Source of the DNA: Candidatus Dojkabacteria bacterium
GTDB taxonomy: Bacteria; Patescibacteriota; Dojkabacteria; B142; OLB20
Assembly: GCA_035444565.1 (NCBI GenBank)
Contig: DAOMOX010000001.1
Coordinates: 130,335 to 194,334, forward strand
Direction of reading: 5' to 3'
DNA length: 64,000 nucleotides
Positions 33,335 through 61,164 of the stretch are shown here, piece by piece (the first letter of the stretch is position 1; the number at the start of each line of letters is the position of its first letter). The notes under the pieces were generated by a model, which was not told the origin of the DNA, ran no database searches, and saw nothing but the letters and a program-made list of their open reading frames with translations. Made by a program: the position numbers and the translations under genes.

Positions 33335-33351
33335 ATTTATTGCTTTTGTAT

Positions 33352-33504: not shown

Positions 33505-33788
33505 ATCAACTAGAAAATCAGACTTTCATGAACATAGTGAAGTGAAAGGCTAGATTTTCTGTTGTCCCGTACGAACAAAGTGAGATACGGGACCTCTCTT
33601 TATCAGTATGCTATTTTCAAAACATCAGCATTATACCGCTGAATGCTCTCTATTATAATGTTTTTCCCTATTTTTTTCATCTTTTTTCACGGATTCTAAT
33701 ATTTTGCGTTAGAATCCAAAGTTGTCTAAGTGGACAAACAATATAATCACACCAATGCTCTACTCTTTATACATTTTATATAGAGCAT

Positions 33789-34451
33789 ATGAACAAAGCA
33801 CCAACCGAACTTGAAGTATTTATCCACGACATTGCAAGCCCACTTACGAATATTGGCATCAGTCTAGAGAATATGAAATCTCATATTTATACTAATCCTC
33901 GTAAACTCGAGAAGACAATAGTGGCAACACTTGACTCACTTGAATATTTGCACTCAATATCTAGAATCCATAATTCCTATTTTTTTGATAATAAAGACAC
34001 CAAGTATTCGGTAGAAGAGTTAATACGTAAAATTGTTACAAATAAATTCGGCTTCATAATCGACCAAAACAAAATATTGCTTTTGTATGACGTACAAGAG
34101 GAGCTTACAATTAATTATGACAAACTATTATTGAACAGAGTAATTACTAATATCATCTCGAACTCAATTGATGCGCTTTTAGAGAAAACACCTCATAAAC
34201 CGAAAAAAATAAAAATTTCAATAAAGAACTTACAAAACAAACTGGTGATTACAATCTTGGACAATGGAATTGGAGTTGACAATAATTTAATTAAAGAAAT
34301 TTTTAATTATGGATATTCAGAAAAAGACTCCCATTTTGGTATTGGTCTCCCAGTAACTAAAGATATTATTGAAAATAGGTTTGGGGGAGTGCTGAAGTTT
34401 CAATCCCTAAGCGGTATAGGGACCTTAGTAAAAATTATACTTCCAATTTAA
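33789..34451 (+). CDS. Soluble histidine-kinase-like protein (HisKA-like H-box plus HATPase_c).
   Basis: FIHDIASPLTNI H-box. ITNIISNSIDAL, ILDNGIGVD and GIGLPVTKDII ATPase boxes. Confidence 0.6.
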   Translation: MNKAPTELEVFIHDIASPLTNIGISLENMKSHIYTNPRKLEKTIVATLDSLEYLHSISRIHNSYFFDNKDTKYSVEELIRKIVTNKFGFIIDQNKILLLYDVQEELTINYDKLLLNRVITNIISNSIDALLEKTPHKPKKIKISIKNLQNKLVITILDNGIGVDNNLIKEIFNYGYSEKDSHFGIGLPVTKDIIENRFGGVLKFQSLSGIGTLVKIILPI

Positions 34452-35119
34452 ATCCTACAAAGATAACCATAACCGTGCGAGGTCTCGATGAAATCCTTTG
34501 CTTTTATTCTTTTTAGTTTTTTTCGCAGGTTCGAGATATAACAATCAACAGTGTTATGGGTAATATCTGGCTTGTCTAGCCAAACATTTGAAACAAGCCT
34601 ATCCCTAGATACCATGCAATTTTTGTTTAGTATCAGAAACTCTAGTAGTTTGTGCTCCCTCTTTGTTAAGGATTCACAAAATGCATCTTTGCGAATACAC
34701 ATTCCTTGAAAATCGATTTCAATTTCGCCAATTTTATGAGTTGAGTATCTCAGCATAGGGGGTTTGCTGATTAACCTTTCAATACGTGCGATCAATTCGA
34801 TATGGGAGAAAGGTTTTGACAGGTAATCATCTACACCGATTCGGAAGCTTTTAGCAAGATGTTCTGAGGATGCCTGACCTGTCAACATAAGTACTGGAGT
34901 TTCAATATCTCTAACTCTGAGATTATTGATAATCTCATCACCATTCATTTCCGGGAGCTTGTAGTCAACGAGAAGACAATCAAAATGTTTCGATATCGCG
35001 TATTTGTAACCTTTTCTACCGTTGTCTACTATGGTAGTATTAAATCCATGTTGTTTTAGAGACTCTCTTAGAGTAAATGCAAGTTGAAGATCGTCTTCAA
35101 TAATTAATAAGTTTTTCAT
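34448..35119 (-). CDS. OmpR-family response regulator.
   Basis: LLIIEDD receiver and a C-terminal winged helix (REHKLLEFLILN...VWLD...VDCYISNLRKKL). Confidence 0.7.
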   Translation of the reverse strand: MKNLLIIEDDLQLAFTLRESLKQHGFNTTIVDNGRKGYKYAISKHFDCLLVDYKLPEMNGDEIINNLRVRDIETPVLMLTGQASSEHLAKSFRIGVDDYLSKPFSHIELIARIERLISKPPMLRYSTHKIGEIEIDFQGMCIRKDAFCESLTKREHKLLEFLILNKNCMVSRDRLVSNVWLDKPDITHNTVDCYISNLRKKLKRIKAKDFIETSHGYGYLCRI

Positions 35120-35164
35120 ATTTATATGTTAGAATCTAAATTCGCTTAAATAAGAAATTCAAAT

Positions 35165-35917
35165 ATGAAGTTACGTAAACGTATACAACTTATGGTTTTG
35201 TCATTATCGATAGTTAGTTTTCTAGTACTGACACTATTCTTCTTCGTGATGAGCAACGAAGGCAGTGATATCTCAGCGCAGGATTATGATCTAGCAGATT
35301 CACTCTTGATTGATAATCAAAAAATCAACCTCTACTACGATAACAACAACAACCAACTGAAGGATAGCGAAGAATCAACATGCGAACAATGCGCTTCAAA
35401 GCAAATTTTAATTGAAATCGTCACAGATGTTGGAAAGGAACTAATAGTTAGAGAAACCGAATCCGACGGAACACTAAATCTTAAGTCAATACGAGTATCA
35501 GCTCTTTGGGCATATCTTCCAGAAGAAAAGTTAATTATTCCTACATTCACATTCACCAATATGATGGATAATTCAGAATTTGATATCCCTGTTATAGCCT
35601 TAAACTACGAACTTGTAGGAGAAAACTCAAATATCGGAAATGTAGATTACAGAAATTTGAATAATAATAATTATGAAATAGATTTTGAATATAAAAATAT
35701 CATTCCAGTATTAGATAATTTCCTTAATTCAGACCTACCAGTGTGGTATGTTTACTATCCTAATGCAGATGTTGTTGATAATTACTACATCTCGTCAGGC
35801 TTAATAGAAACCACCAACGAAAAGACAAATAATTCTTCAACTTTCTGGCATTTTGTTCAGGAGTATTCCACTATCGACAACATCGATCAGTACAAATTAC
35901 TAATACCGAAGGTTTAA
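35165..35917 (+). CDS. Hypothetical secreted or membrane-anchored protein.
   Basis: N-terminal signal/TM. Asn-rich. Confidence 0.35.
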   Translation: MKLRKRIQLMVLSLSIVSFLVLTLFFFVMSNEGSDISAQDYDLADSLLIDNQKINLYYDNNNNQLKDSEESTCEQCASKQILIEIVTDVGKELIVRETESDGTLNLKSIRVSALWAYLPEEKLIIPTFTFTNMMDNSEFDIPVIALNYELVGENSNIGNVDYRNLNNNNYEIDFEYKNIIPVLDNFLNSDLPVWYVYYPNADVVDNYYISSGLIETTNEKTNNSSTFWHFVQEYSTIDNIDQYKLLIPKV

Positions 35918-36675
35918 GGGGCGGTCAGAGTCCACAAACTTGCTATATAAATCACTGCCAGAATCATTGTCAAAAGCTTTCTACTTTTCACCTTTTCAGG
36001 AAGATTCCTAAGTAAAAAATTATAAATTACTAGTGCTAAGGAAATCTGAGCGATAAAAAGTATTGTTAATAGATTAAAGTTAAAAAAGCTATATTCGAAA
36101 TTAATTTCAAAAGGAAGTTTCTCATCTAACAAAATTATAACCATCGCAACGATTCTCATGAATAAGTATCCTCCAATTGCTACGGTGATTTGATTTAATA
36201 AGAATTTTCTATCATCTTGTTTAATCTTAAGAACCCTAAATAACAAAACGATTAGAAGATTTATTCCCAAAACAAACATTATATAAGCACCCCACATAGC
36301 ATAATTTAGAAAAGCTACTTGTTTCGCGATTTCGTTTACCGAGAGATCATTTGCTCGTATGTATGAGGTTAGAAAATATGTAGAAAATGTAACAAAACTT
36401 GAAATTAATAGAAATACAATTAGTTTAATTGTGCTTGGTGGTAAGTAGACTTTGACAAATTCATCAAAATCATAAAAGAATTTAAAAAAATCCGTACTTT
36501 TATGATTCTTATTAGATTCTTTAATTTTGGTAAAGTTGATTTTAGGTTTTTTAATAACAATTTTCATATGAGTTGAGTAAAAATTGAAGAGTAGGTAAAT
36601 TAAAGATAGAATGAATATAGTATCCCTGTCAATTAATAATAAATATGCCCAAGAAAATACATCAGTCAAAAACAT
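35914..36675 (-). CDS. Hypothetical polytopic membrane protein.
   Basis: Five or six hydrophobic helices. Confidence 0.3.
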   Translation of the reverse strand: MFLTDVFSWAYLLLIDRDTIFILSLIYLLFNFYSTHMKIVIKKPKINFTKIKESNKNHKSTDFFKFFYDFDEFVKVYLPPSTIKLIVFLLISSFVTFSTYFLTSYIRANDLSVNEIAKQVAFLNYAMWGAYIMFVLGINLLIVLLFRVLKIKQDDRKFLLNQITVAIGGYLFMRIVAMVIILLDEKLPFEINFEYSFFNFNLLTILFIAQISLALVIYNFLLRNLPEKVKSRKLLTMILAVIYIASLWTLTAP

Positions 36676-38429
36676 CAGTTTTCAAGAGATACAAATCCTT
36701 GATACTCCTACCATTAGGGACTGTCATACTATTAACATTGTGTGTACTTATTTTTGGACTAGGACTCGATAAAAGACTTTTTGATAGTTCTCTAGAGGGT
36801 TACATTTTTGATAAGAATAAAAACCCGATTATTGGTGCAAATGTATGTATCAAAGACAACTGTGCTATAACTGGAAATAATGGATTCTACAAAATAAAAG
36901 AACTCAAGTTAGGAAACAATAAAATTATTGTTACCTCTGACAAACACTTAAATCTCATAGAATCAATTACTATTGATAATGGCGTTAATACCCTTAGTGT
37001 TGAATTAACAGATGCAACACTTGCAAATTTAACTGTAACCATAAGTGATGTGAGTGAACTTCAACTTAACGAGCTTAAATTTTTATTAGATGATAAAGAG
37101 TTAATAGAAAAAACAAGTAAAATAGACGAAAAGACTATTGAACTGAAATTAGAAAACAAGAAAACTGGACTTTACAAGCTTACAGTTGTATCCAGTTATT
37201 ATGTAGACGAAGTCATCGATTTGATAGTAGAACCAGATATTGAAAATAAATATGATATCAAGTTAGAACCTTCTTCAACTTTCAAAATCTATATTCAAAA
37301 TTGGTTGGATTCCACGTCACTCGCAAATACTCAAGTCACTATAGGTAATGACACTGAACTTAGTACAGATGATAAAGGTATGTTAGCAATAAACGAACTT
37401 TCAATTTATGAGGAAGAATTTTTGATTGAAAAAGATGGTTTCTTGAAACAAACATATTCTCTTGTAAATCTACATCCAGGGATAAATCCTGATTTGACTA
37501 TCAAGCTTGTTCCCTATGGTAAGATTACATTCGTGAAAGAAACTGCACTTGGAAAACAAATATTCTTGAGTAATTACGACGGAAGCGAAGCAAGACAACT
37601 CACAGTAGATGGTATGAACACAAATCCATGGATAGATGAAAAAAATGAGAAAGTATACTTTCTAAAAAACCAAGTTGATAAGGCAAACATTGTTCATTGG
37701 GTTGATTTCCTAGGAGAAGAGACAAAGTTAATATCGACAAAGACTGATCAGCCTGCGAGGAAATTAGACTTAGTTAATTATAGGAAAGATATTAGAATTT
37801 TTATAAGAGAAAACGAAAGTGACAGCAAGATTATAAAAACCAATTTAGACGATAATCAAGAAAGTATTTTATACGACCTATCGAATAGAGAATTACAGGA
37901 TTCATTACTTTCCCAAGATGGTAATCAATTTATATTTAGCTTTGTAAGTAAAGAACAGTCAAATTTAGCCGAAGAAGGAATTTACACTAACAATATCCGC
38001 TTCAATCGTACGACAAACCTTATAAAATATAATACAGGTTATGAAAAACGAGTATCTCAACCAAAAGCAGTAAATGATGATGGAAATATCTTAGCATTAA
38101 CTCTCGATGGTGAGTTATTTATTCATAGTTATTCTGGCGAACAAATCGAAAGAATAACAAATGACAATATTGAGAAATCTACATTTCATTTCCAACCAGA
38201 GACTAACAACATAACTTATATCAGAAACATCGAAGGCAAGAAAGAGCTTGTTCTTGTGGATCCTTTTTCAAAGGTTATGAAAATATTAGTTCAGACTGAC
38301 GCAGAATCTTTCGATTATCGGTGGTTGACTAAGGATATTTTCAACTACGTAAGTAATGGAGAGTTGTGGATTTCCTCGGTTAACAACTTAGAGTCAGCCA
38401 AACTTGTAGACAAAACTGTTACGCTTTAG
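36645..38429 (+). CDS. Membrane-anchored protein with a CarboxypepD_reg-like domain and TolB/PD40-like beta-propeller repeats.
   Basis: N-terminal TM. GYIFDKNKNPIIGANVCI...FYKIKELKLG then a PD40-like FLSNYDGSEARQLTVDG. Confidence 0.5.
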   Translation: MPKKIHQSKTSVFKRYKSLILLPLGTVILLTLCVLIFGLGLDKRLFDSSLEGYIFDKNKNPIIGANVCIKDNCAITGNNGFYKIKELKLGNNKIIVTSDKHLNLIESITIDNGVNTLSVELTDATLANLTVTISDVSELQLNELKFLLDDKELIEKTSKIDEKTIELKLENKKTGLYKLTVVSSYYVDEVIDLIVEPDIENKYDIKLEPSSTFKIYIQNWLDSTSLANTQVTIGNDTELSTDDKGMLAINELSIYEEEFLIEKDGFLKQTYSLVNLHPGINPDLTIKLVPYGKITFVKETALGKQIFLSNYDGSEARQLTVDGMNTNPWIDEKNEKVYFLKNQVDKANIVHWVDFLGEETKLISTKTDQPARKLDLVNYRKDIRIFIRENESDSKIIKTNLDDNQESILYDLSNRELQDSLLSQDGNQFIFSFVSKEQSNLAEEGIYTNNIRFNRTTNLIKYNTGYEKRVSQPKAVNDDGNILALTLDGELFIHSYSGEQIERITNDNIEKSTFHFQPETNNITYIRNIEGKKELVLVDPFSKVMKILVQTDAESFDYRWLTKDIFNYVSNGELWISSVNNLESAKLVDKTVTL

Positions 38430-39447
38430 ATAATTCCTGAACCCAGTTATACAATTTACCAATTCCTTCATGGACACTTGTTTGAGGTGCCCATCCAAAA
38501 TCATTTAATGCCTTGTTGTTATTGCTGATAAACACTTTTTGATCTCCAGGTCGCCATGGGAAAAATTCAGTTTTGACCTTGGATTGAAGGATTGATTCGA
38601 TGACATCTAATGCTTCAATTAAAGAGACAGAATTCACAAGTCCACCACCAACATTGTAAATTTTACCCGATGTGGTTTCCAAGTTGTCGATTGCCATATC
38701 GTATGCACGAAGAAGATCATCAATATAGAGTAAGTCTCTTACTTGTTTCCCGTCACCAAATATTTTTATTGTTTCTTTCTGATAAGCAGTTCTTAAGAAA
38801 TGAAAAACCCAACCCTGATCTTCGGTTCCCCATTGTCTTTGTCCATAAATACATGACTGTCTAAACACTAGAGTTTTTAATCCGTAAATTCTAGAAAAAT
38901 CACGAACATATTGGTCCGCACTTCCTTTCGAACAACCATATGGAGAATGGAAATCGAGATTAACATCTTCTGAAACACCCTCTAATAGAGCATCATCTGA
39001 AAATGCATATCTACCGTTTTTCTCCTCTACATTAAATTTTTCTAATCCTCCATAAACTTTATTTGTAGAGGCGAAAACAAAGACTGCGTCAGGACTGTGT
39101 TGTCTCATCGCATCCAGAACATTTAGTGTCCCTCTTGCATTGATTTCAAAATCCTCAATTGGATTTACGACAGAATCAGTCACTGCTACTTGAGCTGCTT
39201 CATGGAAGACAAAATCTTTACCCTGGACTGCCTTGGTAACCGACAATTCATCCCTGACATCACCCCTAATGACTTGTAGGCCTCCACCGAAGGATTCAAG
39301 CCATGGAAGATTTTTCTCTACATTGTTTCTGGAGAAATTATCAAAGATGGTTACGTTTGCTTTGTTCTGAAGCAGATATTTGGCTAAATTAGACCCAATG
39401 AAACCTGCACCACCAGTAATTAATACATTCTTTTTGTTCCAGTTCAT
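38419..39447 (-). CDS. NAD-dependent sugar epimerase/dehydratase (SDR family).
   Basis: VLITGGAGFIGSNL Rossmann and YGCSK catalytic YxxxK. Confidence 0.75.
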   Translation of the reverse strand: MNWNKKNVLITGGAGFIGSNLAKYLLQNKANVTIFDNFSRNNVEKNLPWLESFGGGLQVIRGDVRDELSVTKAVQGKDFVFHEAAQVAVTDSVVNPIEDFEINARGTLNVLDAMRQHSPDAVFVFASTNKVYGGLEKFNVEEKNGRYAFSDDALLEGVSEDVNLDFHSPYGCSKGSADQYVRDFSRIYGLKTLVFRQSCIYGQRQWGTEDQGWVFHFLRTAYQKETIKIFGDGKQVRDLLYIDDLLRAYDMAIDNLETTSGKIYNVGGGLVNSVSLIEALDVIESILQSKVKTEFFPWRPGDQKVFISNNNKALNDFGWAPQTSVHEGIGKLYNWVQELSKA

Positions 39448-39459
39448 AGTTTTAATTTT

Positions 39460-39495
39460 ATAAAAAAATAGGGTGCCGCTACTGCGACACCCTAG
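39460..39495 (-). terminator. Rho-independent terminator for the surface-protein gene.
   Basis: On the minus strand, TAGGGTGTCGCAGTAGCGGCACCCTA followed by TTTTTTTAT. Confidence 0.5.
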
Positions 39496-39511
39496 ATTGT
39501 ATCAGTAAATC

Positions 39512-42247
39512 CTAATCTGTTAAAATCCCACCATTGGTTTTTCTTTTACCGATTAGATTTCCAACATATATGTGACCACCTAGTGCGAAGAATGCAATTC
39601 CCGAAATTATTGCTATTACTGGTATGATAATCCTGTTTGTATTATCACCTAGTATTCCTGTTGCTGGAAGACACATTACATTTACAGTGTGTACTGCTCT
39701 ACCGACTTCTATTCCATCCTGTTTCACTATCACGGTATTAACATAGGTCCCGAAATCAGCGTTTTGAACTGTAACTGAATATGTAAAGGTCTTAGTTTCG
39801 TTTGCAGCCATATTTGTATCTGCCCATACTATTTGGTTCAGGTCGGCATTATATACACCACCTGCAGAGATGGAACTCACACTTAGCAAATCTCCAGTCA
39901 CTTTCTCATCCAATATGTCTGTAATTTCCAATACTCTACTTTCAGAGGTTGGGTTTGTAACAGTCACTGTGTAGACAACTGTCGCAGATGTATCTGCTTG
40001 ACATGTTGGTGCAGAGGTTTTGGTTACTGTAACATTCCCTGGTACTACTACTGTTGTAGGATCATCATCTGTGACGACCTCTTCAGTATCTACTGATTTG
40101 GCAGTTACTGTAACAACATTTACAAAACCAGAGTTTACATTTGCTTGGGTACATGTAAATGATTTCGATTCTCCAATGGCAAGTGATACTTGAAGAGTAT
40201 CGGCAGTACCATCATCTTCTGTTAGATATCTTGTACATGATAGTGCTAATGGATCAGTAACATTTACATTTTCCAATGCAACTGCACCGATATTAGTTAC
40301 GGTAATGTAGAAAGTTGCAGTACCACCTTTTTCAACAGTCTGGGTATCTTGAGCCACTGAGTGATTTTCTACTTCCGATTTCTGTACTCTAATCGCCGGA
40401 GTTCCAGCTAATACAACTTCACTATCATCTTCATCCTCAACAGGGGACCTTCCATCGATAGGTGTTCCTATCACCTCGGCAACATTAGTATAGGATTCAG
40501 TAACATTAGTATCTTGACATGAGTAAGAAACACTTTGATCAACCTTAAGAACACCTGCAGGGGTACTGTCGGCTAAGTCTTCTGTCGAGATATTCCTAGC
40601 ACACCCTGGTGCCATTGCATCTGTAACGACTACATCTTTCAAGTCAATTTCTCCGGTATTTGTAACTGTGATATGGAATGTTGCGTTACCTCCTGAAGCT
40701 ATGATTTGGAAATCAGTGGCATTATTATGATCAGCAATTTCTGATTTGATAATTTGAATTTGCGGATTTAATCTAAATATACCAGCATCCCAACATAGAT
40801 CGGTTTCTCCTGCATCTAGTGTTATGTTTCCTGTATAACCAGTCGATATGTTTGCGTCACTATCTTTACAAGAATCTGTACCAGCGCCTTCAGGACTATA
40901 CGCAAAACCAGTTGGAAGCGTAAATTTGACCACGTATGTTCCTGCTTCTACGTTATCAAACAGATAACACCCTGTATTATCCGTGGTCTTTGTCTGTAGT
41001 GCTGTAGTTGAAGTCGAACTAGTATAAAGACCAACCGTTACGCCAGGCACACCAGTCGCTTCAGTGGTGTCTTGTATACCATCTTTGTTTATATCTTCCC
41101 AAACACAGTCTCCAATCTTTCCAACTTGCAGATAGTAACCTGCATCCCACGAATTGTCTGTCTGTCCAGCAGTTAAAGTGATGACCTCAGTTTTTCCTGA
41201 AACTACGTTTGCATCGCTATCTTTATCATTATTCGACCCTAAGTTTGCACCTGTTCGCGTGTAACTAGGTATATCTTCAAATTCAACAATATATTTCCCA
41301 GCATCAATATTTCTAAATGTATAATTACCTAATGCATCTGTTTGCAGTGTTGCAATCGCTGTGGTACCCGTATCTGTATATAAGTTAACTGTAACCCCTT
41401 CTATTCCTGGTTCTCCATCATCTTGAATACCATTTTTGTTGTTATCTCGCCATACGAAGTCTCCTAGATTAGCTTTTAATGGCTCTGGGGTAGGTGTTAG
41501 AGATGGAGTGACAGATGGTGTTATTGTTGGTGATGGTTTTGGTGTAGGAGTTGGTGTTGGTGTATCCTCAACAGCATTCCAAACTACTCTTACTCTATAT
41601 TCATGGGAACCATTACAAATTGGATCATCCTTATCTGTTCCAGTGGTTCTGTTACACCACTCTTCTGGTGGTCCATCCAATCCGGTAAAATTTATATCTA
41701 CAACCAAAGCTCCTTTCGAACTATCCCAATTCCCTGTCACAATCTTTGGAGTAGCAGGGAACCATGTGTTATCTTTTGTTTCATCAGCGTGTGGCAAATT
41801 AAATGGACCGATTTGCGCATTTGTGTAACCCAATGCTTTCAATGCATTAATCTCAGCGGTACAATCAGCCTGATCGGTACCGTTACCTAAATCTTCCATT
41901 ACAATCGTTTTATTTAATCCAGGAATTTTTAATTCGTGAGTTTCGTTCATTTGAACTATACAACTAGTATTTCCCGCACTCCAACCCCATTGTGTTTCGA
42001 TTTTAACTGTACCTTCTTTGAAATTAGTTGGTATTTGGAATGTTTCCTTTTGGGCTGGTTTTTGTTTCCAAATATCACCCACTCTCCACTCTGTTACAAC
42101 TGGTTCAACTGCAGCATCACTGTCATCAGGTGCGACTTCTCTTTTTTGGAAAAGGTACACACCAAGTATCAACATAAGAAACACAAAAAGACTTGCAACA
42201 GCAGCTATAATAAGCGTTTTGGTTCTTTTATCGTATGAAGTATTCAT
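39512..42247 (-). CDS. Large cell-surface protein: signal/TM, (TP)n linker, SdrD-B-like and DUF11-like Ig-fold repeats, C-terminal LPATG sorting signal plus TM.
   Basis: TPTPTPTPKPSPTITPSVTPSLTPTPEP linker. Repeated GDxVWxDxNxNGIQD (SdrD B-like). TVTNTG (DUF11-like). C-terminal LPATG, then a hydrophobic helix and KRK. Confidence 0.6.
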   Translation of the reverse strand: MNTSYDKRTKTLIIAAVASLFVFLMLILGVYLFQKREVAPDDSDAAVEPVVTEWRVGDIWKQKPAQKETFQIPTNFKEGTVKIETQWGWSAGNTSCIVQMNETHELKIPGLNKTIVMEDLGNGTDQADCTAEINALKALGYTNAQIGPFNLPHADETKDNTWFPATPKIVTGNWDSSKGALVVDINFTGLDGPPEEWCNRTTGTDKDDPICNGSHEYRVRVVWNAVEDTPTPTPTPKPSPTITPSVTPSLTPTPEPLKANLGDFVWRDNNKNGIQDDGEPGIEGVTVNLYTDTGTTAIATLQTDALGNYTFRNIDAGKYIVEFEDIPSYTRTGANLGSNNDKDSDANVVSGKTEVITLTAGQTDNSWDAGYYLQVGKIGDCVWEDINKDGIQDTTEATGVPGVTVGLYTSSTSTTALQTKTTDNTGCYLFDNVEAGTYVVKFTLPTGFAYSPEGAGTDSCKDSDANISTGYTGNITLDAGETDLCWDAGIFRLNPQIQIIKSEIADHNNATDFQIIASGGNATFHITVTNTGEIDLKDVVVTDAMAPGCARNISTEDLADSTPAGVLKVDQSVSYSCQDTNVTESYTNVAEVIGTPIDGRSPVEDEDDSEVVLAGTPAIRVQKSEVENHSVAQDTQTVEKGGTATFYITVTNIGAVALENVNVTDPLALSCTRYLTEDDGTADTLQVSLAIGESKSFTCTQANVNSGFVNVVTVTAKSVDTEEVVTDDDPTTVVVPGNVTVTKTSAPTCQADTSATVVYTVTVTNPTSESRVLEITDILDEKVTGDLLSVSSISAGGVYNADLNQIVWADTNMAANETKTFTYSVTVQNADFGTYVNTVIVKQDGIEVGRAVHTVNVMCLPATGILGDNTNRIIIPVIAIISGIAFFALGGHIYVGNLIGKRKTNGGILTD

Positions 42248-42340
42248 AGAGTTACGGTATCAAAAAATAGATATTATTAATAATCTAACACAAGCGCAAA
42301 GCGATGTTAAATAATTTTAGAGGAATTTACATTACGGGAT

Positions 42341-47811: not shown

Positions 47812-47815
47812 TTAA

Positions 47816-51382: not shown

Positions 51383-51394
51383 TTCGTGTTTCTA

Positions 51395-52234: not shown

Positions 52235-52235
52235 A

Positions 52236-52838: not shown

Positions 52839-52949
52839 TAATAATGATTAAGAAATAATAATAAATCATATCAAAAATAAGATATTATTATTAGACCTCT
52901 TACCTTTTTCTGTTTTTTATGTAAGAATATCTTTTAAATAATCCCCAAT

Positions 52950-54032: not shown

Positions 54033-54087
54033 GAGTTAAATTAGAATATCATTAGTCATAAATTAATTAACTTTAACAGAAACTAAA

Positions 54088-54339
54088 ATGCCAAAAAGTG
54101 TGAATAAACTCGTAAAACAAGCTAGTGTTGTTGCTTCAGCAATAGGAGCAGGAGTTCTAGCCGGTCTTATGCTTGCCCCTAAATCAGGGAAAGAGACCAG
54201 AAAAGATATTAAAAACAAACTTGACGAGACTAAAGATAATATCGAAAAAAAAGGTACAGAAGTAAAGACAGATATGAAAGAAAAAACAGAAGAAATGAAG
54301 AGAGAAGTCGAGAAAAAAGTCGAAGAATTGAAGAAATAA
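54088..54339 (+). CDS. YtxH-like small protein.
   Basis: AGVLAGLMLAPKSGKETRKDI then a K/E-rich coiled region. Confidence 0.45.
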   Translation: MPKSVNKLVKQASVVASAIGAGVLAGLMLAPKSGKETRKDIKNKLDETKDNIEKKGTEVKTDMKEKTEEMKREVEKKVEELKK

Positions 54340-54358
54340 TTTTCAATCCAAAAAACTA

Positions 54359-54387
54359 AAACACGCATTAAACATGCGTGTTTTTTT
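54359..54387 (+). terminator. Rho-independent terminator.
   Basis: AACACGCATTAAACATGCGTGTT followed by TTTTTTT. Confidence 0.55.
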
Positions 54388-54425
54388 ATGCTAATCTATA
54401 TTCATAAATATTATTTTTCCCATTT

Positions 54426-55751
54426 ATGGATAGTTTTGAAAATAGTCCCGACACAACACCAACCCCAGGTGAACAATTAAAACCTACTACTACAAACCCA
54501 CCAACACCAACTCCCGTATCTGCTACAACTTCAAAAACTAAATCAAAGAAAAACTTACTAGAGATTGGAATACTAATAATCATCCTCGCTATCTTGGGAG
54601 GACTTGTTGCATATTATTTAATCTCAAAGAATCAGACAATTTCCATTCCACAGGAGTCAGATACAAACGATCAAGCAAATGGGGAAACAACAACTCAACC
54701 CACACTTGTAGTAGTAACACCTACAATCGAGCCAAGAGAATTAAAGGTACTGGCTGATTGTAAGATGCATAATATTAGTCCTGACGGAGAAATATCCGTG
54801 TTATACGAGAAAGAAGAATTATGCGATTATAATAATCTCATAATTGACGATACCCAGCAATATATTGCTGTTTGGGGTAATTCACGCAAGCTACTAAAAG
54901 TATCTGATGGGACCCTTAATGATTTACCAGAGAATTTATCATTTGGATACTACCATCCGACAAGTAAAAATCTATACACGAAATCTTTTGAAGAAACTTC
55001 ATCCGTTTTGTACAAAGGAACATTGACCAATCCAAAAGTAACCAAAATATTTGAATTTGAACTAACAATGGGAGGACGCGGACCAATGGCAGAAGACGAC
55101 GGTTACATCGCTCCAAACAGTTCAGAAAGTTACATAATTTATCAAGATACAACTACAAATGATTTCTTTACTGAATCGAAACTAGTGCCTCCAAGCTACA
55201 ATGGAGGTATGGTTGTTTTTACATCAACAGGTAGTAAATTAATTGAAGTTGAGGGAGCATTTCGGACTCGTTGGATTGACGATAGTTCACTTGTCACATT
55301 GGTAAAAAACGAGAATAACACACAAGTGACCATAAGGAAGTACACAATCACACCAGATGGTAAGTTCAGTTTCGTAGATTTGTATCGTATTAATGATAAA
55401 TCAACTTTTGGAGAAATCTATAATATTGACATAAGTAATAAAACTGCCCTACTAAACGTTTATAAAGAGGAAAAGCATTTGGCTTACATAGCAGATTTGT
55501 CTGGTGATACCACAACTCTAGTGAAGTATTCAGACATTCCTGCAAATTCACATCTAATGGGTAATGAAAATTTACTTGGTTATGGTTTAACCGAATGTGA
55601 TCCAACAAAGGGACTCGAACAACCAGAAGAATTATCATGTCCTGTGGCAGACTGGGTTTTCGATGATTACAAAACAGATATTAGAATATACAACTTAGTC
55701 ACAAAAGAGAAAAAGACCCTACTCAAACTAGACGAGATGTATTTACTCTAA
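54426..55751 (+). CDS. Hypothetical secreted or anchored protein with a Thr/Pro-rich linker.
   Basis: TTPTPGEQLKPTTTNPPTPTPVSATTS then a TM, then a ~350-aa extracellular domain. Confidence 0.4.
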   Translation: MDSFENSPDTTPTPGEQLKPTTTNPPTPTPVSATTSKTKSKKNLLEIGILIIILAILGGLVAYYLISKNQTISIPQESDTNDQANGETTTQPTLVVVTPTIEPRELKVLADCKMHNISPDGEISVLYEKEELCDYNNLIIDDTQQYIAVWGNSRKLLKVSDGTLNDLPENLSFGYYHPTSKNLYTKSFEETSSVLYKGTLTNPKVTKIFEFELTMGGRGPMAEDDGYIAPNSSESYIIYQDTTTNDFFTESKLVPPSYNGGMVVFTSTGSKLIEVEGAFRTRWIDDSSLVTLVKNENNTQVTIRKYTITPDGKFSFVDLYRINDKSTFGEIYNIDISNKTALLNVYKEEKHLAYIADLSGDTTTLVKYSDIPANSHLMGNENLLGYGLTECDPTKGLEQPEELSCPVADWVFDDYKTDIRIYNLVTKEKKTLLKLDEMYLL

Positions 55752-55759
55752 AATAAGGA

Positions 55760-56689
55760 CTACTTAAAATAAGGCACTCTCCACCATTTAATTGGGTCGA
55801 CGAATCTGTAGTCTCGATTTAATTTCGAGATTTTATCATAATCCTCTGGAGTCATCTCGAAATCAAGGGCTTGTTTGTTTTCTTTGATTCTAGCCTTTGT
55901 GGTACTTTTCGGAATGATTACAACATCTCTACTGATACCCCAATTTAATGCAATTTGAGCAGGTGATTTTTTATATTTCTTTGCAAGTTCCAAGATAACA
56001 TCATCTTCCAACAAGGAATCCTCACCTTCATCTCGTCCGCCAGGTGAGCCCATTGGCGAATACGCGGTTACAAGAATATCTTCGTGTTTCATATATTTCA
56101 GGAACAAATCCTGTGTATTGTATGGATGAACTTCGATTTGATTAACTGCAGGGCGTATTTTCGCATAAGAAAATAACTCAAGCATCAACTGAGTTGAGAA
56201 ATTTGAAACTCCAATAGATTTTACCAATCCTTTTTCGACTAGATTCTCCATCGCTTCCCAAGTTTCTCTAAGTGAGACATTTTCAGTTCTGATGTAACCC
56301 TCACTATCTAATGGTTCATTTTCCTCACCGGATTCGAAAGCAATTCCCCAGTGAATCAAATACAAATCAAGATAATCAAGTTTCAGATCTTTGAGAGTTT
56401 TTCGGCAAGCCTTCTCAACATTTTCTTTTTTGTGCTTTGTATTCCATAACTTGCTGGTGATAAAAATATCCTCACGTTTCACTTTGCCCGAGTTGAAAAC
56501 TTCCTCAAATGCTTCTCCAATTTCTTTCTCATTGCCATAAACAGCAGCACAATCGATGTGTTTATAATCTGCTTCAAGTAATGCATATTTAACAATTTCT
56601 CCAACTACCCCTTTCTCTGACCTCCATGTTCCAAGACCAAAAGATGGCATAGTATTTCCATTGTTCAGTTTGAATTCTGTATGGATCAT
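55760..56689 (-). CDS. Aldo/keto reductase.
   Basis: GLGTW...DCAAVYGNE and IGVSNF are AKR-family motifs. Confidence 0.75.
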   Translation of the reverse strand: MIHTEFKLNNGNTMPSFGLGTWRSEKGVVGEIVKYALLEADYKHIDCAAVYGNEKEIGEAFEEVFNSGKVKREDIFITSKLWNTKHKKENVEKACRKTLKDLKLDYLDLYLIHWGIAFESGEENEPLDSEGYIRTENVSLRETWEAMENLVEKGLVKSIGVSNFSTQLMLELFSYAKIRPAVNQIEVHPYNTQDLFLKYMKHEDILVTAYSPMGSPGGRDEGEDSLLEDDVILELAKKYKKSPAQIALNWGISRDVVIIPKSTTKARIKENKQALDFEMTPEDYDKISKLNRDYRFVDPIKWWRVPYFK

Positions 56690-56835
56690 ATCAAAGAAAA
56701 ATAAATTAATATATAAGCAAATTATATATCACTTTGAGTATAGAATTTCTATTCAAATTGACATGTAAATCTAGTTTTATTAGATATTTGATATTTGTTA
56801 TAGTTTAGATGAACTTAAAATTCCAGAGATTATAA

Positions 56836-58311
56836 ATGCAGAAAATAGTTATCATCATTGTTGTATTACCATTAATATTCCTAGTGTATTCGAGAGAATT
56901 GATAAATACAAAAGCTCAATCGACTGAAGATATTAACACAAGTGTTGCCCCAGGAACTGAGTGGCAAAACGTACCAGGGAATGCTCTATACAATACTGAA
57001 GAGTTCTCAGTGATGCAATTTGAAGCTAAATATGACTGTACTGGAGATGGCCTTGGTGATACAGCAGAAGCTTGCGGTGCTGTTGCGAATTCTGGTTTCG
57101 GTTTGGATCATCGGGACATCATTTCTTTTGATCCTGACAAAGTTGTTTCAACTGCAGAAGGTGCTCCAATTGTACACATCAGTCTCAATCAAGCAGAGAA
57201 TGCTTGTCCTGCAGGGACATATTTGATAAAAAATGATGAATGGATGACAATTACTCGAAACGCAGAACTTCAGTCTGCAAACTGGATTGACGATGTTGTG
57301 GGTTCTACAATTACAGGATTAGGAGGATTAAAAAGAGGTAATGTTTGCGTTATAGATGGAGTTAGTTATGATGGTGAAAATCCTGAATACGGAACATCTC
57401 GAGATGAAAAATCTAAAATTATATTATCGAATGGAACTGAAATATGGGATTTGTCTGGGAATGTGTGGGAACATCTTCGCATAGACGATGCTGATAGTGT
57501 GATACCTCGTGTAAATATGCCGACTTTAAGCACTACTGCTGATGATGGAACTTCTGGAGGTTGGGGAGAATTCACAGACATCGACGGTTATGGCATGCTT
57601 TCTTACGACATCATAAGACCCTTGGATTCATCATATAATTCAACTCATGGGGTTGGACGGATCTGAATATTTGGTGATGATGAAGTATCCGCTGGTTTGA
57701 GAATTGCATTACGTGGAGGTTCATGGACAAGCTTAATCGATGGTGGTATTTTCACAATGAGTCTAAGTGTGGCTGATGTAGGAAGCAACGAAGATATTGG
57801 CTATCGCTGTGCTGGTCCTGCAATTGTTTACCCTACAAATACCCTTACCCCTACATTAGTTCCAACAAACACGCCCCAACCTACTGTGACACCAACTCCA
57901 GTAATAGATATGAGGATTACAAATATTAACGCTATCTACATATTAACTAATGTCTTTACATATTATTACCCTTACAACAACAATATTAAATTTAAAGGGA
58001 TAACACACCCATTGGCATTTGTGAAGATTACAGTTAATTCTGAACCTAAGATTTGCGAAACTACTGCAGACGCAGAAGGGAACTTCGAATGTACATTCTC
58101 ATATATTGAGAATGGTTTGCATACAGTGACAATAGTAGCAACAACTACTGATGAACAGGTCATAACTTATCCTCAAATTACATTAGGGATTAACATGAGT
58201 TTGGTGCCAACTGGCAATGGTTCTCTCATCTCAGTAATAGTTGGAGCCATTATTTTTATATTTGGTATACTAATTACTCGGTTTAAATCACCACGTCTTA
58301 ATTACAAATGA
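56836..58311 (+). pseudogene. FGE/SUMF1-domain (sulfatase-modifying-factor-like) protein interrupted by an in-frame TGA at 57664-57666. Listed as ORFs 56836..57666 and 57697..58311.
   Basis: GNVWEH before the stop and RGGSW after it are the two hallmark FGE-sulfatase motifs. Both pieces share a frame. The C terminus has a T/P linker and a TM. Confidence 0.45.
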
Positions 58312-58784
58312 CCTTCCTATCACATGCACTCGTTGGGGCTTCAATCGGAGTTGCGTTATCAAATATCACTGGAGTAGATTCAAATTTAACAGTTCCATTG
58401 AATATTGGACTTTCATTGCTTCCGGACATTAATTTAATCTGGAGGAAGATTTCCGACCACCATAATGATATTACACATTACCCATTTCTCTGGGTGGTAT
58501 TAGCAACAATTGTGTGGTATTTAGAGCCTGCGACACATATATATTCTATGTCGATTTTATTGTCTGGATTATTCCATCTCATTTTAGATACTTTTGGGAT
58601 GAATGTAGGTGTTCATTGGCTCGCGCCCTTCCATTCAAAAGAGTTTTCGTTTACTAAAATACATCCACAACCCAAACAAAAGTCTGTGAAATCAAAGATC
58701 AATCAATTCCATAATTCAAAACATAGTTACATCGAACTTATTACGATTTTGGCAAGTACCTTTGTAATCTGGGCATTATTTTAG
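58308..58784 (+). CDS. Membrane-bound metal-dependent hydrolase (DUF457/YdjM-like).
   Basis: SHALVGASIGVAL and HLILDTFG match His-rich motifs in TM helices. Confidence 0.45.
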   Translation: MTFLSHALVGASIGVALSNITGVDSNLTVPLNIGLSLLPDINLIWRKISDHHNDITHYPFLWVVLATIVWYLEPATHIYSMSILLSGLFHLILDTFGMNVGVHWLAPFHSKEFSFTKIHPQPKQKSVKSKINQFHNSKHSYIELITILASTFVIWALF

Positions 58785-59363
58785 TAACTCGTCTAGTTCT
58801 TCGACTTTATCGATAATGGCTAAGGGTTTGGCTTCTCCTAAAATTTCTCTAGAGTGCAATCCCCAAGTAACCCCTATTGCATCAATATTGAGTTTCCTGG
58901 CTTCATTTATATCTCCAACTGTGTCAGTCACAAATATACAATCTTCCGGCTTTGCATCATATTTGTCCATTATCATTTGTAGTTTCTCCACCTTGCTTGG
59001 ATTTATGTGTACATCATAAATATCATCAATAAACTCACTAATTCTTTTCTCAGACAGAAAATTTTCAATTCCCTCTCTAGGAGAACTACTACAAATCACA
59101 ATTGTTCTGTCATTGTATTTTTTCAGGAAATCATACAAAGGGTAAAACTCAGTCTCTACTACTCTTTTGTTATACATATCAAAATATATTGGATAATGTT
59201 CCTTCTCATATCTAATAGCTGGTTTTAACATGGGATTAGATTTCCCATGATCAATATGGTCTTGTTCTGTTACATCGGGGAAAAATTTCCGTGACAATTC
59301 AAGGTGAAGTTGCATAGTATTTGCAAGGACACCGTCGAAATCGAATATTATTACTTTTTTCAT
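58776..59363 (-). CDS. HAD-IA hydrolase (phosphatase).
   Basis: IIFDFDGVLANT motif I. Confidence 0.6.
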   Translation of the reverse strand: MKKVIIFDFDGVLANTMQLHLELSRKFFPDVTEQDHIDHGKSNPMLKPAIRYEKEHYPIYFDMYNKRVVETEFYPLYDFLKKYNDRTIVICSSSPREGIENFLSEKRISEFIDDIYDVHINPSKVEKLQMIMDKYDAKPEDCIFVTDTVGDINEARKLNIDAIGVTWGLHSREILGEAKPLAIIDKVEELDELLK

Positions 59364-59608
59364 ATTATAATGACTGATTATAAATCTCTAAGATGCCTGA
59401 GTACATATTTCTCAAGAGTCTGTCTAACCTCAATATCAGGAATTTCTTTTATTTTCTTCTTTAGAGTCTGAACTTCACTCACATCTTCAAGCTCCTTTAG
59501 AATTTTAGCACCTTGCTTAGATAAAATTGATTTGTCAGTCAGAACTCGCGCTATATCTACGCCTTCTTTTATATATGTATTTAAGGCTGTGTTTTGGTCT
59601 AATTTTCG

Positions 59609-60154
59609 TTACTTCGGAAGGCTCAACAATCCTTTAATCACAACTTTCTTTGTCTCATCTTTATTAAATACTACATTTAAATATGTCTCTGCGCCATATT
59701 TTGATTTTGAGATGTATTTCAAATGCGGTAATAAATCTTCCTTATAATAAGCTCTTTGCCCAGTGAGATTTGAGAATATCTTATGTATTGGTTTAACTTC
59801 CAAAATCCCCATCACCACTCTGTAGTTGCTATTTAATATTGGCTTCAATAAAGTTTCAATATGTTCGATCGTTAGATTTGTAAAATCCGCATCCAGGAAT
59901 AGAATAATATCCCCTTTGGCTTTTTTAATTCCCTCTGCCATTGCATTCCCTTTGCCTTGATTTAGATGGATATCGATAATTTGAATCTTATTTTTGAAAT
60001 TATTAATTTCTTCAAGAGTGTTGTCAGTTGAGCCATCATTAATACAAATTACCTCATCAACTTTGGGAGATTTCAATATCACCTCTAATACTGTAGTGAT
60101 TGTCTTTTCCTCATTATATGCAGGAACGATTGCGCTAATAAAGTGTTTTGACAT
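59609..60154 (-). CDS. GT2 glycosyltransferase (dolichyl/polyprenyl-phosphate sugar synthase-like).
   Basis: ISAIVPAYNEE, INDGSTDNT and FLDADF (DxD) motifs. Confidence 0.6.
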   Translation of the reverse strand: MSKHFISAIVPAYNEEKTITTVLEVILKSPKVDEVICINDGSTDNTLEEINNFKNKIQIIDIHLNQGKGNAMAEGIKKAKGDIILFLDADFTNLTIEHIETLLKPILNSNYRVVMGILEVKPIHKIFSNLTGQRAYYKEDLLPHLKYISKSKYGAETYLNVVFNKDETKKVVIKGLLSLPK

Positions 60155-60237
60155 ATAGATTAGATTAATTAGTGGGAAAGTATAGCATGTGATGAGAAGG
60201 GGTGGAATGTTTCCGATTTAGTCACAAAGCGGGACCG

Positions 60238-60489
60238 ACGGGACTCGAACCCGCAACCTCACGCGCTTGCCCCGTAAGAATTTATTCTGTACGGGGTGAC
60301 AGATAAATAATGTTTACAGGAAAAATGAGAATACGGACAACCATAGACAAAAAAGCGGGACCGACGGGACTCGAACCCGCAACCTCACGCGCTTGCCCCG
60401 TAAGAATTTATTCTGTACGGGGTGACAGATAAATAATGTTTACAGGAAAAATGAGAATACGGACAACCATAGACAAAAAAGCGGGACCG
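60238..60489 (-). repeat. Two tandem 126-nt units. Each is an 89-nt spacer carrying a CCCCGTA...TACGGGG hairpin plus a 37-nt copy of the tRNA-Asp 3' half.
   Basis: 60238-60363 and 60364-60489 are identical. The 37-nt segment equals tRNA-Asp positions 38-74. In tRNA sense the spacer ends CTGTCA-[31-nt hairpin]-C then GCGTG. Confidence 0.8.
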
Positions 60490-60490
60490 A

Positions 60491-60564
60491 CGGGACTCGA
60501 ACCCGCAACCTCACGCGTGACAGGCGTGTGCTCTAACCAGTTGAGCTACAATCCCGCTTTTTTG
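60491..60564 (-). tRNA. tRNA-Asp (anticodon GUC). 74 nt including discriminator G, no encoded CCA.
   Basis: GGGATTG/CGGTCCC acceptor, TA, GCTC-AACTGGTTA-GAGC, CACGC-CTGTCAC-GCGTG, GCGGG-TTCGAGT-CCCGT. Confidence 0.85.
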
Positions 60565-60796
60565 TCTATTCAATTATGAAGAACAATAAAGTCTAATACC
60601 CAAATAAACGAGAGCTATTTATCCTCCGTAGTTTTACGAAGGAGGACAATCCCGCTTTGTGACTATTGACGACTTGTATAGAACGGATAGATTATAGCAG
60701 AATTTGGAGAAAAATATTAAGAGATTGAGAAATTTAGAAACGAAGTAACTCTTTAAGAGAACCTAAGAAATTATTTCTAATTATTAAAATTATTAA

Positions 60797-61164
60797 TGCC
60801 GCGGAGAGCCCAGGATTTAATCCGGGGGAATCCCGTACAAACTTCATTTCACTCGTTTTACGGGACAAGCCTCAAAGGGATTTCTCTCCCGCTAAACTTC
60901 GTTAGCGGGACAAGCCACCACCACCTTTGAAGAGATTAACTAAGTTGCTGCTGCGGAGAGGAGTTTTACTAGTAGTTGATGAACGTAGTGAATCTACTAC
61001 TAGTTATCCCTGCATATATCAGATTCCATTTAACTTTGTCAGGGAGAACCTCAAGTATCCTTAGCTAGTTGAATGATAAATGCTGCGGAGAGCCCCGGAT
61101 CTAATCCGGGGGAACCTCAATCATAATGTTCCCACCACCACCTCAATAAAGATAAACAAGTTGC
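60797..61164 (-). repeat. Three degenerate tandem tRNA-Leu-derived units (pseudo-tRNA fragments) with hairpin insertions.
   Basis: Each unit begins (T)TGCTGC(T)GCGGAGAG, like the tRNA-Leu 3' end. They retain AAGGGATTTCTC and CCACCACCACCT blocks homologous to the intact gene. Confidence 0.5.

Follow-up and report, generated by a model that had tools for sequence, protein, structure and literature searches.

Why should a family of short hairpins be restricted to the tRNA loci of a bacterial chromosome? The question is raised by a stretch of 64,000 nucleotides from a Candidatus Dojkabacteria genome (assembly GCA_035444565.1, contig DAOMOX010000001.1, positions 130,335 to 194,334 of the forward strand), hereafter the window, in which a preliminary description had reported four hairpins of the form CCCGTA-loop-TACGGG at the tRNA loci and nowhere else. 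It proposed that these could be a recognition site for tRNA processing or recombination, an intron remnant or small structured RNA, or a mobile micro-element. Our analysis of the window, of its relatives and of other contigs from bacteria of the Candidate Phyla Radiation (CPR) leads us to regard the hairpins, with some reserve, as probable derivatives of a very small selfish palindromic element that encodes a GIY-YIG nuclease and targets tRNA genes across CPR bacteria. The copies in the window would have lost the open reading frame (ORF), and they resemble miniature inverted-repeat transposable elements (MITEs) and repetitive extragenic palindromic (REP) sequences.

Hairpins of the two tRNA-bearing regions

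The window contains exactly four matches to the pattern CCCGTA-N8-30-TACGGG (33566-33591, 60271-60295, 60397-60421 and 60832-60864), whereas dinucleotide shuffles gave a mean of 0.01 matches and none of 100 shuffles reached four. All are confined to two intergenic regions, which hold the three tRNA genes of the window, Arg(TCT), Asp(GTC) and Leu(GAG), all on the minus strand, and which represent 21% of its approximately 10.3 kb of non-coding DNA. The full hairpins extend over 33564-33593 (copy 1), 60270-60296 (copy 2), 60396-60422 (copy 3) and 60831-60865 (copy 4). The coordinates first given for copies 1 and 4 are correct, but those of copies 2 and 3 (60279-60305 and 60405-60431) had been placed 9 nt too far to the right. 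Copies 2 and 3 are identical, as described, because both lie within one 126-bp tandem repeat, and the window therefore has three independent CCCGTA copies. The TTG or CTTG prefix also proved to be a real tag: on the plus strand it is CTTG in copies 2 and 3 and GTTG in copy 1, while copy 4 bears its CTTG on the minus strand and so has CAAG after the hairpin on the plus strand. It had been overlooked that the hairpins lie inside dead copies of tRNA genes, that copies 2 and 3 are a tandem duplicate, and that the family is broader than the CCCGTA stem.

The restriction to tRNA loci persisted under a stricter test. As the MAFFT alignment of the family was out of register, a covariance model (R1) was built from only two unrelated metagenomic copies of equal length (from contigs L141 and L144; loci outside the window are designated by such numbers), with a hand-written structure. 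Searching the window with filters off, R1 gave seven matches at E<=0.0054, all in the two tRNA-bearing regions, and the next best was not under E=0.16. Chance palindromes in GC-poor DNA, an explanation for which only the small copy number speaks, can be regarded as refuted: besides the four matches against 0.01 expected, a model of independent origin recovers the hairpins at E-values of 1e-5 to 1e-7, and loops are common to copies from unrelated organisms.

Insertions in dead copies of tRNA genes

The live tRNA-Asp gene (60481-60555, minus strand) is flanked by a 12-13-bp leader/trailer complement (atagacaaaaaa / ttttttgtctat) and is followed, on the tRNA-sense strand, by two tandem dead copies of its 3' part (positions 38-73; 60229-60265 and 60355-60391, minus strand) that are 100% identical to it. 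They belong to the tandem repeat at 60226-60517 (2.3 copies, 100% identity), whose 126-bp unit is composed of the tRNA-Asp 3' part, a 52-nt spacer, CTGTCA and the hairpin; the number of units varies between assemblies, L002 (GCA_035444845.1) having one fewer. With its tag, copy 2 (60266-60296, plus strand) reads CTTG followed by CCCCGTA-agaatttattctg-TACGGGG and is inserted in one of the dead 3' copies at tRNA position 37/38, in antisense orientation to the tRNA. It matches R1 with 26.5 bits and folds as single-stranded DNA (ssDNA) with z=-5.6; copy 3 (60392-60422, plus strand) is its tandem duplicate. In tRNA-sense order, CTGTCA is followed by the 31-nt insert (CCCCGTA...TACGGGG-CAAG), then by CGCGTGAGG and so on to the 3' end. 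Upstream of the live gene, a dead 5' copy (60612-60663, minus strand), made up of GCGGGATTG (60647-60655) and TAGCTC (60612-60617), is split at position 9/10 by the hairpin TCCTCCGTAGTTTTACGAAGGAGGA (60622-60646) with a TTTA tag, so that the sense order is GCGGGATTG, hairpin, TAAA, TAGCTC. Its flank, gtcacaaa, complements the tttgtgac found after the last dead 3' copy. The best promoter-like site (60691-60720, minus strand, TTAATA-18-TG-TATAAT) is located upstream of the dead 5' piece and not immediately upstream of the live gene.

At the second locus the live tRNA-Arg (33261-33335, minus strand) is accompanied by a dead copy (33353-33504, minus strand) consisting of TAGAGCAACTGCCTTCT (33488-33504, approximately positions 21-36) and TAAGCAGTAGGT (33353-33364, positions 37-48), which repeat search and alignment identified as exact repeats of the live gene. 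The two pieces are separated at 36/37 by about 120 nt with the hairpins H3 (33446-33485), H2 (33408-33444) and H1 (33368-33404). Upstream of them, in the tRNA-sense reading, are two further hairpins, H4 (33512-33560) and H5 (33561-33593), of which the latter is copy 1, and a tRNA-Arg fragment sits between H3 and H4. All five are read on the plus strand. H5, antisense to tRNA-Arg, has the GTTG tag, the stem GTCCCGTA/TACGGGAC and the loop cGAACaaAGTGAga; it matches R1 with 27.6 bits (E=3e-6) and folds as ssDNA at -7 kcal/mol (z=-2.7). H1 (25.8 bits, E=1.2e-5) bears the same loop, GAACttAGTGA, on a different and fully compensated stem, TCATTGTA/TACAATGA, and the loop of H4 is GAACatAGTGA.

Downstream of the live tRNA-Leu (61163-61249, minus strand) there are three dead Leu-like 3' fragments on the same strand, A (61081-61146), B (60950-61052) and C (60797-60930). 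Fragment C bears three hairpins, all on the minus strand. Copy 4 (60831-60869 with its tag; CTTG and TCCCGTA-aaacgagtgaaatgaagtttg-TACGGGA) stands between T-stem G53 and T54, sense to the tRNA, and is the best R1 match (32.1 bits, E=1e-7). Its sister C1 (60887-60914; CTTG and TCCCGCTAA-cgaagt-TTAGCGGGA; 29 bits, E=1e-6) stands in the variable arm, and CCCCCGGATTAAATCCTGGG (60809-60828) in the T loop at 56/57, with a homologue in fragment A at 61093-61111. Once the two CTTG hairpins are taken out, fragment C aligns colinearly with fragment A as well as with the live gene in its variable arm and T stem; fragment A, which has neither of them, is the empty-site paralogue of C. Fragment B, derived from the T arm and acceptor, has two T-loop hairpins, B1 (61007-61045), whose stem shows a compensatory G-C to T-A change in L005, and B2 (60968-61004; loop GAACgtAGTGA; R1 match at E=0.0054). 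All eight independent hairpin modules at 60155-61371 are in tRNA-derived sequence, against none in about 500 nt of other spacer.

Two side observations concern this gene. The arms of C1 (TCCCGC / GCGGGA, 60887-60910) have the sequence of the 3' and 5' strands of the tRNA-Asp acceptor, with the order permuted, maybe a coincidence within the YCCCG family. The acceptor and T arm of the live tRNA-Leu (61163-61249) differ from the ancestral type (..CCTCTCCGCAGCA) kept in the dead fragments (60797-61146) and in L005, L008 and L012, and the tRNA-Leu of L004 (12445-12531), with a neighbouring protein 98% identical, has yet another variable arm. The tRNA-Leu gene is undergoing rapid replacement or conversion.

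In all three cases the tRNA sequence runs on unbroken across the inserts (Asp at 37/38, Arg at 36/37, and Leu in fragment C when compared with its hairpin-free paralogue A). No target-site duplication was found at any of the approximately 15 insertion sites read, and in this the hairpins depart from MITEs. Since the interrupted tRNA sequence is contiguous on both sides, the hairpins are insertions and not the arms of a larger element. Integrative elements are known to leave tRNA gene fragments (PMC9897764), and the fragments of the window could be attachment-site duplicates of integrase-type elements, with the hairpins as element arms or secondary decay. Partial dead copies beside an intact gene fit such remnants, and the 3' pieces begin at classic places of crossover, namely the anticodon loop or the T arm (reviewed in PMC9897764). 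Moreover, the gene content of these loci differs between close relatives, the dead Leu fragments retain an ancestral acceptor from which the live gene differs, and in L144 an rve-family transposase lies beside the array. This origin is nevertheless improbable in our view. Besides the contiguity of the interrupted sequence, neither a tyrosine nor a serine integrase was found near the window loci or the other arrays examined, the repeats lie 50-300 nt from the live gene, and a pseudo-5S rRNA copy has the same insertion. Unlike what integrases leave, 5' pieces precede and 3' pieces follow a single live gene, a GIY-YIG ORF lies between the pieces, and the fragments are themselves interrupted by hairpins.

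Structure of the family

Members of the family consist of a tetranucleotide tag (mostly CTTG, with GTTG, CCTG and TTTA also seen) and a 7-bp stem, YCCCGNN/NNCGGGR, often with an apical motif of the form G-A / R-C / NNA / G-Y / G-A, that is, tandem G-A pairs, two base pairs and a triloop. In the R1 alignment of 34 distinct copies, 97.5% of the cells are paired and 11 of the 12 pairs have changes on both sides, figures that lean towards the structure because the alignment was fitted to it. There are 13 copies with G-C and seven with A-U at the apical pair, which is outside every search pattern. The loop motif GAACNNAGTGA has five matches in the window against 0.5 expected, four of them within these hairpins, and is common to hairpins of very different stems, such as TCATTGTA/TACAATGA and ACTAGTAGT/ACTACTAGT. 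The hairpins fold stably as ssDNA (z = -2.7 to -5.6 relative to shuffles), and copies sense and antisense to the tRNA occur in about equal numbers, a balance that indicates a DNA-level element.

The conserved structure with its compensatory changes could also suggest functional RNA in tRNA precursors, acting in processing, stability or termination. In the same direction, an A-to-G change in the Asp hairpin of L005 retains a G-U pair on the tRNA-sense strand only, and transcription from the sole good promoter-like site near tRNA-Asp would read through the dead 5' piece and its hairpin. We consider a role of this kind very unlikely, given that about half of the copies are antisense to the accompanying tRNA, that no U-tract follows the hairpins and no terminator-like site was found, and that the hairpins are absent from orthologous loci of other Dojkabacteria, where the tRNAs would presumably have to be processed in the same way. 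A known RNA family is excluded: Rfam, applied to both loci (gathering score, E<=10), identified only the three tRNAs, the best other score being far below threshold, and on 20 foreign loci it gave tRNAs, rRNAs and one group I intron elsewhere, with no family for the hairpins. A tRNA intron was likewise rejected. Excision followed by ARAGORN restored no whole tRNA for any window copy or for 123 metagenomic copies (a double hairpin in L170, described below, is the one exception elsewhere), the ARAGORN intron search found no credible intron-bearing tRNA, and there was no group I signal.

Distribution among Dojkabacteria

Searched against one genome per species, the 562-aa protein encoded next to tRNA-Leu gave matches only from Candidatus Dojkabacteria/WS6 and other CPR, and the gene order 562-aa gene, tRNA-Leu, tRNA-Asp is conserved. 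Members of the hairpin family occur in L001-L005, in L037 and in the window. In the more distant Dojkabacteria L008, L010 and L012, the syntenic Leu-Asp loci have neither dead copies nor hairpins, and in L008 and L010 the Leu-Asp spacer is only 85-92 nt. The R1 scan gave the same picture, recovering seven members in the window and none in seven such loci of distant Dojkabacteria (11 tRNAs). The two orientations, the absence from orthologous loci, the lack of an Rfam match and the failure of excision to yield a tRNA together make a host RNA-processing signal unlikely, and the hairpins are likely to be a lineage-specific DNA element. Among the identities first proposed, a tRNA-processing site is thus unlikely, and an intron remnant or small structured RNA finds no support. 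A recombination site, recognised in cis by a GIY-YIG nuclease, is a possibility. The mobile micro-element comes nearest to the evidence, with clean insertions in either orientation, a lineage-specific presence and the same context in unrelated CPR genomes.

The tRNA-Asp site also exists in three states among these genomes: empty in L008, L010 and L012, filled with an ORF in L007 and L167, and occupied in L004, L005 and the window by a relic with hairpin debris. The site thus shows, in related genomes, both the filled and the empty allele that characterise a homing cassette.

The extra ORFs between the 562-aa gene, tRNA-Leu and tRNA-Asp differ among close relatives and are absent from the window (L004 11700-12310, L005 8945-9387, L007 5754-8998), and the Leu-Asp locus is a hot spot of gene gain and loss. 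A further property of these tRNA genes is the leader/trailer complement that extends the acceptor stem, by 13 bp in Asp (60469-60567), 7 bp in Arg (33253-33343) and about 11 bp with one mismatch in Leu (61152-61260), and that was examined also in L005, L007, L008 and L010. At least seven perfect pairs were found in 7 of 20 Dojkabacteria tRNAs vs 2.5 in shuffles, and in none of 37 tRNAs of other metagenome loci. The idea that these stems are empty processing stalks was dropped; as hairpin-free relatives have them too, they are a separate feature.

Copies in other CPR bacteria

A pattern scan of metagenomic contigs gave at least 120 loci. The raw CCCGTA pattern is not a clean definition of the family, since most matches are unrelated hairpins, terminators or coding sequence, and the T-loop motif was found near only 6 of 123 metagenomic matches, vs 1.5% in controls. 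A subset on CPR-like contigs nevertheless repeats the arrangement of the window exactly, a tagged hairpin forming a clean insertion in a dead copy that adjoins the live gene. It includes tRNA-Ile and tRNA-Phe within an rRNA operon (L141), dead copies of tRNA-Gly (L144), Ser (L082), Ala (L076), Lys (L120) and Cys (L106), the same phenomenon on a further unrelated CPR contig (L069), and a pseudo-5S rRNA copy (L158). Across such CPR contigs, hairpins with YCCCG stems interrupt or replace arms of dead tRNA and 5S rRNA copies. Loop variants are common to the window and foreign copies, for instance CGAGTGAAA in L141 and in window copy 4. The 16S rRNA gene of L141 (2625-4567) has 1,943 nt against a model of 1,533 positions, which is an insertion of the CPR type. 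A phage or viral origin was rejected, as a pattern scan of IMG/VR gave 24 scattered matches with no relevant context.

Three other observations were made on these contigs. Eight loci (L056, L068, L084, L099, L102, L103, L106 and L123) have a near-identical long hairpin, CTTGCCCCGTAGTAGAAC-TTCG-GTTCACTACGGGA, with CTGCGCCC following it in every case; the stem opens with GTAGTAGAA, a sequence similar to the arms that surround the GIY-YIG ORFs in L171 and L157 (see below). In L154 the 3' arm of a CTTG-CCCCGTA hairpin (8202-8244) provides the first four bases (GGGG) of the live tRNA-Ala (8241-8316), and four identical bases stand just ahead of the tag, as though the 5' end of the gene had been remade on insertion behind position 4. 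Finally, seven unrelated low-GC contigs (L048, L058, L060, L067, L072, L129 and L136) have in common a leader of about 75 nt, CTTGTCCCGTACTAAATTTTTGATTACGGGG...AAAATTTTAGTACTGGGATG, which ends at the start codon and has a long-range pairing CCCGTACTAAAATT / AAAATTTTAGTACTGGG. It had no Rfam match in the four scanned (L048, L058, L060 and L072) and may be an undescribed cis-regulatory RNA.

Association with GIY-YIG ORFs

In L007 and L167 the tRNA-Asp locus has the order dead 5' copy, ORF of 84-89 aa, live tRNA, dead 3' copy, and the anticodon arm in both dead copies is replaced by CCCCGAC..GTCGGGG. In L009 the same design of ORF and dead copies is found at tRNA-Lys. The ORFs of L007 and L009 encode a GIY-YIG catalytic domain only (Pfam PF01541, E about 3e-17), homologues were found in nine further contexts, and intact ORFs encode 80-100 aa. 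They lie at tRNA-Thr (L055), Asp (L161-163, including tandem dead copies), Met (L164-166), Glu (L168 and L170) and Ala (L169). Altogether, nine of the 11 contexts read are tRNA loci (Asp, Lys, Thr, Met, Glu and Ala), where the dead or interrupted copies carry hairpins. In L163, for example, three tandem dead copies have the T arm replaced by TCCCGAT..ATCGGGA, and in L169, which has CTTG-tagged hairpins, the stem CCCCGCCAC ... GTGGCGGGG (855-954) encloses the whole live tRNA-Ala, the tRNA forming the loop of the hairpin. At 1318-1440 of L170 a tRNA-Glu(CTC) is broken in the D stem by a 48-nt double hairpin (1329-1376), beside the ORF and a live tRNA-Glu. Excising the insert restores a complete tRNA-Glu by ARAGORN, and the interrupted copy may be a freshly disrupted resident gene.

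In the remaining two contexts, L171 and L157, a long inverted repeat encloses the ORF with its two arms. The L171 element is 309 nt long and has arms CCCCGTAGTGAAAATTCAAA ... TTTGAATTTCTACTACGGGG of the CCCCGTA...TACGGGG type, and L157 is similar; both contigs also bear CTTG-CCCCG hairpins without an ORF. The L171 arms start with CCCCGTAGT and end with ACTACGGGG. ORF-less copies share CCCCGTA/TACGGGG with them and, in eight loci, the longer GTAGTAGAA, a short match and one for which the window offers no autonomous copy. As a side observation, L166 has two tandem copies of an 83-aa GIY-YIG ORF (1140-1391 and 1501-1752) by tRNA-Met where the sister contigs L164 and L165 have one, a tandem amplification of the nuclease gene itself. 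In protein databases the homologues of these ORFs form at least 6,714 clusters, many named from CPR phyla.

In the window, tblastn and nucleotide alignment identified a relic of the last 12 or so codons of such an ORF (60552-60587, minus strand) directly upstream of the live tRNA-Asp. Its position is syntenic with that of the intact ORF abutting tRNA-Asp in L007 and L167, and approximately 27 of 31 nt are identical between L005 and L007.

Several results weigh against deriving the hairpins from a GIY-YIG element. The relic is statistically weak when taken alone (E=2.6 in the window, 0.18 in L004 and 0.44 in L005), and a six-frame search with hidden Markov models found no intact gene of this family in the 64 kb. 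Only two of the 120 listed metagenomic loci have a GIY-YIG ORF within reach of the CCCGTA-type copies, and Pfam analysis of the 127 ORFs situated no farther than 1.5 kb from metagenomic copies recognised only housekeeping genes and one rve transposase (L144), with no recurrent nuclease. The short-loop hairpins beside the ORFs (CCCGAC and CCCGAT types) have no R1 match; what ties them to the CCCGTA type is the shared YCCCG 7-bp stem and the context, short of demonstrated homology. In addition, the 84-aa catalytic domain is without an evident DNA-binding module to set its specificity.

Comparison with known mobile systems

The REP and REPIN palindromes, which carry GTAG or CGTC tags and depend on REP-associated tyrosine transposases (RAYTs; PMC3733652), are the nearest parallel for the relation between hairpin and enzyme. 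In both systems tagged palindromes of 20-40 nt are multicopy and cause no target duplication, a single nuclease gene is flanked by inverted repeats, and non-autonomous copies far outnumber the gene. The likeness raises the alternative that the hairpins are independent REP- or MITE-like tagged palindromes, moved by an unidentified ssDNA transposase (RAYT/IS200-like or IS91-like) encoded elsewhere in the genome, and that the GIY-YIG ORFs merely share the tolerant junkyard near tRNA genes. The anatomy is that of the REP super-families (PMC3733652), with a 30-40-nt palindrome, a fixed 5' tetranucleotide, both orientations, many copies and no target duplication, and the GIY-YIG ORF is absent near most copies. 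GNA or NNA triloops closed by C-G, which are typical of stable DNA hairpins, agree with this explanation as well.

We judge it unlikely all the same. The tags are CTTG, GTTG, CCTG and TTTA, and neither the window hairpins nor the foreign ones have the GTAG or CGTC that defines REP/RAYT systems. A motif scan of the ORFs in the examined loci found no HUH/Y1 candidate, and Pfam found no recurrent transposase among the 127 ORFs. The insertions strongly favour tRNA-derived sequence over neutral spacer, and in L171 and L157 arms of this very type enclose the GIY-YIG ORF. Further differences are that the associated protein is of the GIY-YIG and not the HUH Y1 kind, that the copies lie within tRNA- and 5S-derived DNA whereas REPs are generally found at gene 3' ends, and that CPR are not among the reported host phyla. 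REP/RAYT systems have tens to hundreds of extragenic copies in a genome; the 64 kb of the window contain seven family members.

For a GIY-YIG element at tRNA genes, there is a precedent in SegB. This endonuclease of T-even phages is encoded in a tRNA gene cluster and cuts inside tRNA genes (RAWTSGAAC, the T-loop DNA; PMC13096335, and Brok-Volchanskaya 2008 cited there), and tRNA segments are amplified in tandem in a manner that depends on the nuclease and proceeds by microhomology shared by a tRNA end and the end of the nuclease gene (PMC13096335). The CPR loci likewise have a GIY-YIG gene lodged among tRNA genes and tandem copies of tRNA segments. Unlike SegB, the CPR elements have GC-rich hairpins with 7-bp stems, dead tRNA copies with interrupted or replaced arms, and ORF-less derivatives; they are located in bacterial chromosomes and not in a phage. 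SegB also has an added DNA-binding region, whereas the CPR proteins of 80-100 aa consist of the catalytic domain only.

Paquin et al. (1994, 2000) reportedly described mobile GIY-YIG ORFs in fungal mitochondria, which bring with them a copy that replaces part of the gene they target, as well as double-hairpin elements in the mitochondrial DNA of Allomyces. There too an ORF reportedly invades an essential gene and brings a substitute copy, the resident part becoming a pseudogene fragment, and small mobile hairpins are said to occupy the same regions, including rRNA genes. By the same accounts those systems differ in being organellar, in their protein-coding targets, in their larger ORFs and in having no tagged YCCCG hairpins.

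The tRNA introns of archaea, which form a bulge-helix-bulge, are likewise short inserts that fold into hairpins, and they too occupy many tRNA positions, 37/38, 53/54 and 56/57 among them. They differ from the elements described here in that the latter have a bacterial host, occur in incomplete interrupted copies and in both orientations, and restore no tRNA when removed. The conserved boxes of integron attC sites, Xer/dif sites and group II intron domain V do not match the hairpins, and these identities were rejected.

Other features of the window

The tRNA genes of the window have no encoded CCA and have oligo-T tails. An archaeal origin, suggested by these two traits, was ruled out because the genes adjoining the tRNA loci (an OmpR-type regulator and SRAP) are bacterial. 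Apart from these loci, the hexamer TGGTGT is repeated eight times (71% matches) at 41516-41563, inside a 911-aa ORF on the minus strand.

A proposed element and its significance

The intact element would consist of a GIY-YIG ORF of 80-100 aa, limited to the catalytic domain, together with the same kind of hairpin, the ORF sometimes lying between two arms. It would enter tRNA genes and, in one case, 5S rRNA-derived DNA, leaving one gene copy interrupted or with an arm exchanged for a hairpin while a working copy stays alongside. In the window the nuclease ORF would have decayed to the approximately 35 nt upstream of tRNA-Asp, and what remains would be hairpin-bearing tRNA debris, partly amplified as the 126-bp tandem repeat. 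The anatomy of the loci, the clean insertions, the family membership with its covariation, the lineage-specific presence and the occurrence of GIY-YIG ORFs at tRNA loci and with such hairpins are all observed directly. We infer that the hairpins are mobilised by the GIY-YIG protein, which would cut either the target or the hairpin itself before a copy is made by repair, and that in the displaced copy the hairpin may serve to abolish the target or the tRNA function. The action would take place at the DNA level.

More tentatively, these loci could represent an unrecognised class of minimal mobile elements in CPR, a possibility that we put forward as a conjecture. Such an element would be approximately 310 bp long, with a domain-only GIY-YIG ORF of 80-90 aa within a hairpin stem of about 20 bp, and would be accompanied by many more ORF-less riders. 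It would home into tRNA and 5S rRNA genes and be kept because it disrupts the resident gene while adjoining or supplying the only working copy, and its nuclease would recognise a DNA structure, either the hairpin or a cloverleaf cruciform, and not a sequence. In the literature searched, whose coverage is incomplete, we found no description of hairpins in CPR tRNA genes or of GIY-YIG genes with tRNA fragments in this arrangement.

For annotation, hairpin-interrupted copies of tRNA and 5S rRNA genes are easily taken for introns, split genes or assembly errors. If the proposal is correct, it would assign a role and a way of life to the stand-alone GIY-YIG proteins, a very large family now annotated only as "GIY-YIG nuclease family protein", and would provide a GIY-YIG-based counterpart of the REP/RAYT system. 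An 84-aa nuclease guided by structure would be a possible tool. The proposal would also account for the fact that, in streamlined genomes such as these, tRNA loci hold some of the largest non-coding stretches.

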